The position numbers and the translations under genes were made by a program. Below, in pieces: positions 3,133-6,588 of a stretch of DNA of 39,217 bases; within the stretch, counting starts at the first letter, position 1, and each line of letters begins with the position of its first letter. Origin of the DNA: a virus (Duplodnaviria > Heunggongvirae > Uroviricota > Caudoviricetes); IMG/VR virus record IMGVR_UViG_2684623171_000001; one strand, written 5' to 3'. The notes under the pieces are model-generated. The model did not search any database. It was not told where the DNA came from and saw only the letters and a list, made by a program, of their open reading frames with translations.

Positions 3133-4065
3133 ATGACTGATATTAACGATGTAATCAAGACCATTGATGAACTTATTGATGGCGGCGTACTGACGCAGTA
3201 TGCCATCGCCAGAGAGGCGGGAATTTCCGACGGCACATTATCGGCTTTCCGCAAGGGGAAATATAAAGGCGATAACGCCGCTGTGGCTGCTTCCCTGCGT
3301 TCCTGGTATGAGAACTGGAATAAACAAAGCGCACTGCCGGAACCGCCGCAGTTTGTGGAAACGCAGACAGTTCAGGAGCTGCGCGCACTGTTTCAGGCGG
3401 TTCGCCTGATGGGCTGTATTAACGTCATTGTGGGCGTGCCGGGGGTAGGTAAAACGGCCACCGCCCGTAATTACTGCCAGGAGCAACCAAACACCTGGAT
3501 GATCACCCTGTCACCCGCGCACTCCAGCGTCACGGAGTGTCTGCTGGAGCTGGCCGATGCGCTGGGGATTGATTACACCCGCGCGAACAAAGGGGCATTA
3601 TCCCGCGCCATCCGCCGTCGCCTGATGGGAACGCGTGGACTGGTGATTGTGGATGAGGCGGATCATCTTGGTATTGACGGTCTGGAGCAACTCCGGGCAA
3701 TTCAGGACGCCACGGGGATCGGGATGGTGCTTATTGGTAACCCGCGCGGATTGTTTAAAGGTGGACGCCGCGCCTTTGATGATTTATCGCGCCTGTTCAG
3801 CCGTCTTGCCCGTACAAAACAACTTCGCAAGGCCAAAAAGGCGGATGTGCTGGCCATTGCCAGGGCATGGGGTATCAGTGGTGAGGCCGAGCTGGCCGTC
3901 ATGCAGGCTATCGCTGAAAAGCCGGGAGCGTTACGCGTTCTGACACATACGCTTAACCAGGCGTGGCTCACCGCCAGCGGTGAAGGTGCGGCGCTGACAG
4001 AAAAACATATTAATGCGGCCTTTAAAGAGGTTTATACCAACCCTGAATTACTCTCACAGGTGTGA
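3133..4065 (+). CDS. B: MuB-type AAA+ ATPase, transposition target-DNA activator
   Basis: 310 aa; Walker A GVPGVGKT and Walker B VIVDEADHL; follows the transposase as in Mu. Confidence 0.85.
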   Translation: MTDINDVIKTIDELIDGGVLTQYAIAREAGISDGTLSAFRKGKYKGDNAAVAASLRSWYENWNKQSALPEPPQFVETQTVQELRALFQAVRLMGCINVIVGVPGVGKTATARNYCQEQPNTWMITLSPAHSSVTECLLELADALGIDYTRANKGALSRAIRRRLMGTRGLVIVDEADHLGIDGLEQLRAIQDATGIGMVLIGNPRGLFKGGRRAFDDLSRLFSRLARTKQLRKAKKADVLAIARAWGISGEAELAVMQAIAEKPGALRVLTHTLNQAWLTASGEGAALTEKHINAAFKEVYTNPELLSQV

Positions 4066-4289: not shown

Positions 4290-4556
4290 ATGAGGTGTTA
4301 TATGAATATGCAATCCTGCGGTAACAAAATGAATTTATTCGACTCCCTGAACAGCGCGCGCCGTCTGACCGAACTTGCCGGTGCGGTACTGGAACGCAGT
4401 AAGCGCTACCCACAACGTTTTGCACTGAAAACCACGCCGCCGGTAGGCAACGTGCAGGGAACCGGTGAAATTGAAATCACCATACAGACCAACGGCCTGC
4501 GCCGCCGTGTGAAGGCCACCCGCATCAGCGGCTGCACGGTTTACTGGGAGGTGTGA
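4290..4556 (+). CDS. Hypothetical early-region protein
   Basis: 88-aa ORF tightly packed in the rightward early operon; start codon uncertain. Confidence 0.4.
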   Translation: MRCYMNMQSCGNKMNLFDSLNSARRLTELAGAVLERSKRYPQRFALKTTPPVGNVQGTGEIEITIQTNGLRRRVKATRISGCTVYWEV

Positions 4557-4557
4557 G

Positions 4558-4839
4558 GTGAAAAAAAATCTCATTGCATGGGCGTGGTCGAGTGGTCTTA
4601 TTGAGTTTGGTTACGTCCTGCCGGAAGGTGCATTGCCGATAGTTGCCGGAAAGCCTGCCACGGTACGGCATGTGATTGAGGTTATGGCGCGTCATGGACG
4701 TGATGAACAGGAGCAGTTACTGGTTCCGGGGATACCGGAAGCGGTGACGGAGGAAGAAGCCTTTAATGCCATGATTCGGTTCTGCCGTGAGGTCAGACGC
4801 CGGGTCAGTTATCCAAACAGAACGAGGACCAGAGGGTGA
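4558..4839 (+). CDS. Hypothetical early-region protein
   Basis: 93-aa ORF, start 2 nt after the previous stop; its stop overlaps the next GTG start (GTGA). Confidence 0.4.
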   Translation: MKKNLIAWAWSSGLIEFGYVLPEGALPIVAGKPATVRHVIEVMARHGRDEQEQLLVPGIPEAVTEEEAFNAMIRFCREVRRRVSYPNRTRTRG

Positions 4840-5108
4840 GTAAAGTCGTACGCATTATTTTCGAATACAAGGAGCACGTTATCCATAAAAACGCTGATGG
4901 AACAGTGCGCATGGGGGTAAGTCTGGACATACGTTCAACCGGGATAAAGCAGAAAGGTGATGGACCCGCCATGATTTTTGGGGTGGTTATGCTCGCGGAA
5001 AGCAGAGACTTTGCTGAACTTGTGGCAATGAAAGCCAGTGCGCTCATGAAAGATATGAGCATGCGTTCCGGGGTTATTAAAGGTAATGAATTTAATCAGC
5101 AGGGGTAA
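4836..5108 (+). CDS. Hypothetical small protein, paralog 1 of a tandem pair
   Basis: GTG start; N-terminus MSKVVRIIFEYKEHVIHKN resembles the start of the next ORF. Confidence 0.45.
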   Translation: MSKVVRIIFEYKEHVIHKNADGTVRMGVSLDIRSTGIKQKGDGPAMIFGVVMLAESRDFAELVAMKASALMKDMSMRSGVIKGNEFNQQG

Positions 5109-5112
5109 TTCC

Positions 5113-5406
5113 ATGAGCAAAGTACGCGTTATTTTTGAATTTAAGCATGTTTCGCATGACGAAAAACCGGCAGGCAATGACTGTGTTGAAGTGCATGAAA
5201 AGATTGGTGTGGATGTAAAAACAGAACGTGATACGAATAACAGGCCGACGTCACTCTGTGACGTTTATGCAAGTATTCTCCAGTATCACAGCCCTGAAAT
5301 TATTCAGTTTCTCTCAGCGGAATTTCAGGCATCTGTACAGGCTTTTGGGGCGGATGCCATCATTAAACGCCACCGCGTGCATAAAGCATCAGGCACACTG
5401 CAATAA
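5113..5406 (+). CDS. Hypothetical small protein, paralog 2 of a tandem pair
   Basis: ATG at 5113 with AGGGG RBS; N-terminus MSKVRVIFEFKHVSH similar to the preceding ORF; the track's upstream start at 5086 is less likely. Confidence 0.45.
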   Translation: MSKVRVIFEFKHVSHDEKPAGNDCVEVHEKIGVDVKTERDTNNRPTSLCDVYASILQYHSPEIIQFLSAEFQASVQAFGADAIIKRHRVHKASGTLQ

Positions 5407-5417
5407 GGAAAAACAAA

Positions 5418-5948
5418 ATGGCAAAACGCGTTACAAAATTAAAGGCCGCAGCAGAGGCGGCACCGCAGACCCGTGAAGAGGTCAGCCGCGATATCCGCAC
5501 CCTGGGCGATATTCAGCGAGAGGCGCTGCGCCTGGAAACAGCGATGAATGATGAAGTGGCAGAAATCACCGCCCGTTATACGCCGCAGATTGAAAACCTT
5601 AAAAAAGAAATCAAAGTGCTTTTTAAGGGGATTCAGGACTGGTGCAAAACCAACCGTGATGAGCTGACGAACGGCGGCAAAACCAAAACTGCCAATCTGA
5701 CCACCGGAACGGTGTCATGGCGACTGGGGAATCCATCATGCAGCGTCAGTCGTGATGTGGAAGGTGTGATTGAAATGCTGCGCCGTATGGGCCTTGAGCG
5801 TTTTATCCGCACGAAAGAGGAAGTGAACAAGGAAGCGGTCCTGGCGGAGCCGGATGCGGTGAAAGGGATTGCCGGTATTAAGGTGAATAAAGGCGCTGAA
5901 AGTTTTTATGTCGAGCCTTTTGAACAGGACGCCGGACTGAATAAATAA
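5418..5948 (+). CDS. gam: Gam-like host-nuclease inhibitor (DNA-end binding)
   Basis: 176 aa; size and position match Mu Gam; lysine-rich coiled-coil-like N-terminal half. Confidence 0.75.
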   Translation: MAKRVTKLKAAAEAAPQTREEVSRDIRTLGDIQREALRLETAMNDEVAEITARYTPQIENLKKEIKVLFKGIQDWCKTNRDELTNGGKTKTANLTTGTVSWRLGNPSCSVSRDVEGVIEMLRRMGLERFIRTKEEVNKEAVLAEPDAVKGIAGIKVNKGAESFYVEPFEQDAGLNK

Positions 5949-6045: not shown

Positions 6046-6588
6046 ATGGCATATTTTTATTTCAAATTAGACCGTGTGCAGACAAATAAATATTTCACCA
6101 AATATCAACAGACTGTTTTACCGCTACGCAACAGTATTCTTCGGGCATTACTGAAAAATACAGGCGCTGCCGGATTGCGCTTAAAGCCGTTTGCCATGGA
6201 CGTAATCAGTGAGTTTTATTTTTCTGGTGCTCTGCCTGCGGGCTGGCGTAAGCGCGATGATGTGGCTTTTATCGGGGACGGACCGTGCTTTATTGCCAGA
6301 CCTGATGAGTCATGCCCTGAAGGTCCGGCGATTGCCGCAATGATTGAAACCGCTGAACGTGAGTTAAGAAAGCGTCCTGATTTCCTTGTCTGGCTCTGTG
6401 AAAAGCTGGGGGTAATGAGAATCCCCTCCATGTTTAACACGGACTCCTGGTGGACCCCGTCGCTCTCCCGTGATGCCCTGTGCGTGGTGTTTAAAGTAGG
6501 CGCTTATGGCAGGGAAATAAAAGGGTGTATTCCTGAAGAATGCCAGGAAATTAAACATTCTGAATATGTGGCGCTGACGGAGGAATAA
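6046..6588 (+). CDS. Hypothetical protein, accessory region
   Basis: 180-aa ORF in the gam-gemA variable region; no motif recognised. Confidence 0.45.
   Translation: MAYFYFKLDRVQTNKYFTKYQQTVLPLRNSILRALLKNTGAAGLRLKPFAMDVISEFYFSGALPAGWRKRDDVAFIGDGPCFIARPDESCPEGPAIAAMIETAERELRKRPDFLVWLCEKLGVMRIPSMFNTDSWWTPSLSRDALCVVFKVGAYGREIKGCIPEECQEIKHSEYVALTEE

Follow-up and report, generated by a model that had tools for sequence, protein, structure and literature searches.

Adjacent small genes upstream of gam in the Mu-like prophage Sp18 are probably diverged paralogs of one early-region protein family

Tandemly duplicated, fast-evolving small accessory genes are a general pattern in phages, for example among anti-defence and host-takeover genes. 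In phage Mu, the interval between B and gam carries gp7 (E6, Mup07), an 87-aa protein that resembles in size and early-region location the products of two adjacent genes, orfA and orfB, analyzed here in a Mu-like prophage. The DNA examined (the window; the whole stretch of 39,217 nt of IMG/VR record IMGVR_UViG_2684623171_000001) corresponds to prophage Sp18 of Escherichia coli O157:H7 Sakai, with 100% identity over the 2.1 kb around orfA and orfB, and many other Shiga-toxin-producing E. coli are also 100% identical across the same 2.1 kb. A published study of the prophages of strain Sakai (PMC2669165) predicted Sp18 to be intact. Its genes run in the order repressor, ner, transposase A, MuB-type ATPase, ECs_4947, ECs_4948, ECs_4949, orfA, orfB, gam and homologs of Mu gp11 and gp12 (Table 1), which places orfA and orfB in the semi-essential early region of a Mu-type genome. 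From MuB to gam, the + strand showed neither promoter-like nor terminator-like sites. Among complete E. coli genomes, the prophage region was observed in up to four places per genome and once on a plasmid, a distribution compatible with a transposable phage that is active.

Several neighbors of the two genes are themselves variable or sparsely annotated. The Kil homolog ECs_4948 is annotated as 'hypothetical protein' and is separated from MuB by one gene more than Mu kil is. The family of ECs_4949 is labeled 'host nuclease inhibitor', a label whose basis is not evident. Presence or absence of ECs_4949 is polymorphic (L014, L017, L019, L021, L032, L033, L036, L037, L042, L043 and L045); many relatives hold only a remnant matching residues 72-93, which some gene calls append to orfA as 26 extra N-terminal residues (P0001, 116 aa). 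Downstream of gam, ECs_4953 (6046-6588) occupies a second variable slot. Related to SfMu gp11 (DUF5420, 40% identity), it is missing in ~10 related contigs, and ~8 others carry a 24%-identical variant instead.

Table 1 Features of the Sp18 early region, with coordinates in the window
Feature	Coordinates	Strand	Description
MuB-type ATPase	3133-4065		
ECs_4948	4302-4556		Kil homolog, PHROG 2679 (E 7e-46); 33% identical to the C-terminal half of Mu Kil
ECs_4949	4558..4839	+	93 aa, PHROG 1518; upstream neighbor of orfA, stop overlaps orfA start
Diversity minimum	4796-4870		End of ECs_4949 and first ~35 nt of orfA
orfA (ECs_4950)	4836..5108	+	90 aa, basic (pI 9.45), PHROG 4107; putative diverged upstream copy
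orfA 5′ segment common to orfB	4836..4886	+	Encodes MSKVVRIIFEYKEHVIH; low nucleotide diversity among relatives
Diversity minimum	5078-5137		End of orfA, spacer and first ~25 nt of orfB
orfB (ECs_4951)	5113..5406	+	97 aa, pI 6.6 (6.58), PHROG 2230; copy with family-typical sequence
orfB 5′ segment common to orfA	5113..5157	+	Encodes MSKVRVIFEFKHVSH
Diversity minimum	5408-5452		orfB/gam junction
gam	5418..5948	+	Mu Gam family PF07352, 57% identical to Mu Gam; downstream neighbor, marks the semi-essential early region

Both orfA and orfB are annotated as 'hypothetical protein'. The start codon of orfA is GTG (4836-4838) here and in L032, and ATG at that position in most relatives. This GTG overlaps the TGA stop of ECs_4949 (GTGA), an arrangement that suggests the two genes may be translationally coupled. 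Shine-Dalgarno motifs are located at a distance of 7 nt from the start of both genes (GAGGA at 4824-4828 for orfA; AGGGG at 5101-5105 for orfB), and orfB ends 11 nt before gam. The listing of open reading frames also offers a longer orfB from an ATG at 5086, inside orfA; all orfB homologs begin with MSK. The ratio dN/dS was 0.29 for orfA (21 alleles), and 0.41 and 0.24 within the two allele classes of orfB described below (0.35 overall). Judged by these ratios (0.24-0.41), orfA and orfB can be regarded as real genes under purifying selection. A single E. coli protein record at NCBI (P0036; one record only) represents an in-frame fusion of orfA residues 1-49 with orfB residues 80-97. As its junction falls at a 'ttttgggg' (FG) microhomology common to both genes, it is explained by an internal deletion between non-homologous positions of orfA and orfB.

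A sequence-only reading of the window had proposed that these adjacent ORFs share a related N-terminus and similar 5′ DNA and then diverge, as the outcome of a local duplication followed by diversification. The N-terminal relationship was confirmed. BLASTP aligned residues 1-17 of orfA with residues 1-15 of orfB at 12/17 identities with two one-residue gaps (E 9e-4 as a single comparison), and orfA keeps the N-terminal strand MSKV-R-IFE-K nearly unchanged. The six frames of the window contain 181 ORFs of ≥60 aa; when their 20-residue N-termini were compared with one another, the orfA/orfB pair was the best among 16,290 pairs, with the best other pair scoring 39. The Smith-Waterman score was 45 compared to 24.1 ± 4.2 for shuffled sequences (3/5000 shuffles reached 45), and the global alignment score was 19 compared to -33 ± 11 (0/5000 reached 19). 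Given the shuffles and the N-terminus pair control, the similarity is real and lies above the chance level that the reading had named as its possible undoing. Similar 5′ DNA was likewise recovered, with 35 of 45 aligned bases identical (78%) and two 3-base, whole-codon indels. It is because of these codon indels that a gapless repeat search misses the orfA/orfB repeat. A separate repeat hit (D6, TTTTTGAATTTAA, also within ECs_4947) looks like chance. The DNA similarity begins exactly at the start codon, the DNA upstream of the two starts is dissimilar, and most synonymous sites within the shared segments are identical. This degree of 5′ identity exceeds what would be expected if the whole genes had diverged together and points to gene conversion, recent 5′ exchange or nucleotide-level constraint. 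Beyond the first 17 residues, nothing was detectable by pairwise comparison of orfA with orfB.

Gene junctions stand out in the variation among related prophages. Across 25 distinct haplotypes, nucleotide diversity reached its minima at gene junctions and its maxima in gene bodies. Two allele classes of orfB were distinguished that are ~60% identical in protein (L038-L046, L005 and L006). The first 30 nt of the gene are near-invariant across both classes, and divergence between them was 5% in the first 33 nt versus 34% in the body. These classes combine freely with orfA alleles (79-100% identical), and the backbones carrying either class are 94-100% identical in MuB and gam. Alleles of orfA, orfB, ECs_4947, ECs_4949 and ECs_4953 reassort, and the orfA alleles of L019 and L042 contain orfB-type bases in the shared 5′ segment. 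Variable bodies set between conserved junctions are the usual picture of cassette exchange via homologous recombination, which these patterns suggest took place here; such recombination at the junctions would account for the agreement between orfA and orfB at most synonymous sites of their 5′ ends. Homogenization of the 5′ ends, or nucleotide-level constraint, is therefore likely to have acted on top of common descent, and for this reason two alternative origins of orfA were kept under consideration.

The first alternative is that orfA is an unrelated gene that took only the start and the first ~15 codons of orfB, either by partial duplication or by recombination at the gene junction. Such a capture fits the confinement of strong similarity to the first 45-51 nt, where the 78% DNA identity extends to most synonymous sites, as well as the position of recombination-prone conserved blocks at the gene junctions beside variable bodies. 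It also fits an orfA N-terminus that is nearer to the local orfB than distant orfB relatives are. However, profile comparisons extended the similarity into the body of the protein. Already with close orfB relatives (A3), the orfA family (A2, 22 sequences) aligned over 33 columns (hhalign, E 1e-5). An orfB profile search of 1.84 billion representative proteins then provided distant full-length relatives (P0098 and P0100-P0103) of 93-98 aa with ~30% identity to orfB and the N-terminus MSNK-QVIFTFE. Against the orfB family widened by these relatives (A5), the orfA profile matched over 66-75 collinear columns (E 3e-6, probability 88%), and with the first 12-21 residues removed from both families hhalign returned the same register (orfA 24-75 versus orfB 27-79, P ~0.002). 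Overall, hhalign probabilities were moderate (88% and 37%) and the family alignments shallow (Neff 1.3-3.3). Furthermore, orfA aligned over 75 columns to a profile of the distant relatives only (A6), which excludes the Sp18 sequence and has a different N-terminus (score 25.7, P 3.5e-4; 0/200 column shuffles reached the orfA score). Among the 748 six-frame stop-to-stop ORFs of the window, orfA was the sole other match of the orfB-family HMM (E 8e-4), and with the distant-only HMM it was found at E 0.004, with the next best ORF above 2.

Two further observations weigh against a captured 5′ end. AlphaFold models of both proteins, although of low confidence, predict a common layout of a long N-terminal β-hairpin followed by helices: in orfA (pLDDT 62.7), a hairpin (residues 3-18 and 24-38), a third strand and then a helix; in orfB (pLDDT 53.2), a hairpin (residues 4-21 and 24-39) and then two helices. 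Structure prediction had been suggested as a check by the sequence-only reading; the shared layout favors paralogy, and the low confidence means that the models add little and that a shared fold is at most putative. In addition, no orfA-like body was found outside the orfA/orfB pair in searches of phages, viral contigs and proteins. On balance, we consider a captured 5′ end unlikely. Because the profile match survives both removal of the N-terminus and restriction to distant relatives, orfA is better described as a diverged paralog of the orfB family than as a mere N-terminal look-alike; certainty about its membership is moderate rather than complete, since the profiles are shallow. We conclude that orfA and orfB are probably diverged paralogs of one family of ~90-98 aa proteins, and that both are translated, co-oriented genes of the Sp18 early operon. 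The proposed divergence after the N-terminus thus holds for the pairwise comparison, but in profiles gives way to weak collinear similarity up to ~residue 75.

The distribution of the two genes indicates how the pair arose. The 571-bp orfA-orfB pair was found in 233 records representing 232 complete E. coli genomes, of which at least 226 have a place covering ≥80% of both genes. Among the 41 viral contigs with orfB, those that are untruncated all also carry orfA, with the exception of L046. In L046 and in E. coli CI5 (L005), orfB stands alone, without orfA and ECs_4949. Here, the DNA before the single orfB is homologous to the DNA before orfA elsewhere, and the gene itself is orfB-type from base 6 on. 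The final ~45 nt of ECs_4949 form a conserved context before orfA that also precedes the lone orfB-type gene where orfA is missing. This single-copy state may be either ancestral or the product of a secondary deletion.

A single orfB-type gene with no orfA was also found in nine more distant Mu-like prophage loci, whose MuB is 62-79% identical; these comprise Citrobacter braakii ATCC 51113 (L085), the one locus returned by a profile scan of genome contigs with the distant-only alignment, and eight viral contigs. In five of the nine (L085, L086, L088, L089 and L093), the orfB-type gene or match starts at the end of an ECs_4949-type gene, and in L085 and L086 the two genes overlap by 4 nt of start and stop codon exactly as orfA does in Sp18. 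The remaining four (L087, L090, L091 and L092) have the orfB-type gene after a Kil-like gene, and no ECs_4949-type gene was found there. The downstream gene was identified in two of the nine, as DUF3164 in L085 and as gam in L091. In the Citrobacter locus, a 212-aa DUF3164 protein (L085:5303-5941; PF11363, E 6e-79) fills the gam slot, and the neighbors are syntenic. In the distant loci where gam or DUF3164 was identified, the order of the early operon is the same as in Sp18, with the orfB-type gene placed after Kil-like or ECs_4949-like genes and just before gam or DUF3164. In the enterobacterial Mu-like prophage loci examined, the slot of the family, as read from gene order, appears to be the one upstream of gam or DUF3164.

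From this distribution, a single copy is the more widespread condition and the pair is a specific feature of the Sp18-like lineage of E. coli, which fits a lineage-specific duplication. By sequence comparison, the upstream copy (orfA) seems to have kept the ancestral context with a diverged sequence, and the downstream copy (orfB) to have retained the family sequence. The copy-number and divergence surveys proposed at the outset showed single copies in the nine distant loci, CI5 and L046, the pair in nearly all E. coli genomes with the prophage, and two orfB classes under purifying selection. For the proposed local duplication followed by diversification, paralogy and divergence are upheld by the profile comparisons (E 3e-6, P ~0.002 and P 3.5e-4), whereas the local origin of the second copy has a competitor. 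As a second alternative, orfA could be a homolog that arrived from another Mu-like phage by recombination, with its 5′ end later homogenized with orfB. The body of orfA is about equally far from local and distant orfB relatives (~20% identity to each), the region is mosaic with reassorting alleles, and the orfB-type bases in the L019 and L042 alleles of orfA are of the kind such homogenization would leave. However, phage, viral-contig and protein searches revealed no lineage that carries an orfA-type gene alone and could have been the donor, and orfA occupies the ancestral position, its start lying on the stop of an ECs_4949-type gene like that of the single copy in distant loci; we regard acquisition of this kind as unlikely. 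A last alternative, that the shared segment acts at the nucleotide level (as a regulatory site, an RNA structure or a translation-initiation signal) and is repeated before unrelated genes, or is a product of chance, draws on the low variability of the junctions and gene starts (first ~30 nt), the least variable DNA of the region, on start regions that fold more weakly than shuffled ones (z +0.65 and +1.59), as expected of open initiation regions, and on MSK being a common N-terminus, but is hardly credible given that similarity runs from exactly the start codon with dissimilar upstream DNA and whole-codon indels, that differences are chiefly third-position or conservative replacements, that neither an Rfam scan nor folding of the start regions revealed an RNA element, and that shuffles and the N-terminus pair control exclude chance. 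The preferred reading is that of an ordinary lineage-specific tandem duplication of an uncharacterized small early gene.

Residues V6, F8, F10, I55, L56, E70 and G79 are invariant across the orfB family and are mostly hydrophobic core positions. As there is no conserved catalytic set and no match to an enzyme domain, orfA and orfB are most likely small non-enzymatic binding proteins. In such proteins, the predicted N-terminal β-hairpin and C-terminal helices would place the conserved first strand in the core or at an oligomer interface and leave contacts with a host or competitor factor, probably early in lytic growth, to the variable remainder. Neither protein is strongly acidic in the manner of a DNA mimic (pI 9.45 for orfA and 6.58 for orfB). 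A role in host interaction or anti-defence would fit the two allele classes of orfB and the accessory setting of the genes, although this is conjecture, and orfA appears to be dispensable for this type of prophage since CI5 and L046 lack it. A more elaborate possibility, to which we assign a low probability, is that the two proteins belong to a modular diversifying family in which the constant strand serves both as structural or oligomerization core and as recombination handle. The conserved 5′ DNA block would then let variable bodies swap between Mu-like prophages, and a basic orfA and a mildly acidic orfB might hetero-oligomerize against a variable host defence or competing phage; if so, duplication would have broadened the range of targets.

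As it stands, the finding is one of ordinary phage genome evolution. In the accessory early region of a Mu-like prophage often found in Shiga-toxin-producing E. coli, it offers a dated case of tandem copies that diverged asymmetrically. Should the proteins prove to act against host defences or in the exclusion of other phages, the single-copy and double-copy prophages and the two orfB classes would make a ready comparison set.

Among described families, orfB belongs to PHROG 2230, matching positions 1-88 of the 89 of its profile (E 1.3e-40). The distant members of that family resemble orfB in length (93-98 aa), in the V-IF-FE N-terminal strand and in their slot upstream of gam or DUF3164, and an HMM built from them alone matches orfB at E 2e-17. 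For orfA, the PHROG library scan gave an end-to-end match to PHROG 4107 (E 1.1e-61) and none to PHROG 2230, and the orfB profile search of 1.84 billion proteins did not retrieve orfA at E ≤ 0.001. All 41 protein-search matches of PHROG 4107 are from E. coli wherever the source names an organism, and every untruncated viral contig with orfA has orfB as well. Both PHROGs are labeled 'unknown function'; the relationship described here would join them as one family, a link that appears to be new and is weak. Searches for other relatives returned little: neither protein matched Pfam or NCBIfam, PADLOC-DB (E ≤ 1) held no family for orfA, orfB, their neighbors or the distant relatives, a PDB sequence search with both family profiles gave only noise, and among 50,697 phage records tblastn with the two proteins matched only two, both of Stx phages with an inserted Mu-like phage. 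A literature search on ECs4950, ECs4951 and Mu early-region accessory functions yielded nothing on these two genes, and neither locus tag occurs in the papers listed for them. An RNase H-like (YqgF-RuvX) fold was rejected, as it calls for a significant structural match together with conserved acidic catalytic residues and fold searches gave insignificant matches only.

The closest positional counterpart, Mu gp7, begins with MAKVIIEIK and shows a weak collinear alignment with orfB, whose global score was reached by 3/5000 shuffles. BLASTP of orfA and orfB against gp7 gave no match, and homology was rejected since hhalign lends it no support (E 0.43 for orfA, 0.1 for orfB and 0.2 for the wide orfB family, all with probabilities <1%); orfA and orfB are consequently not classed with gp7. 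No sequence or structural link was found to characterized anti-defence or host-takeover proteins. The likeness to such phage genes is instead one of genetic behavior: orfA and orfB share with them small size, early expression, accessory location and variable presence, together with allelic dimorphism and asymmetric divergence after duplication.
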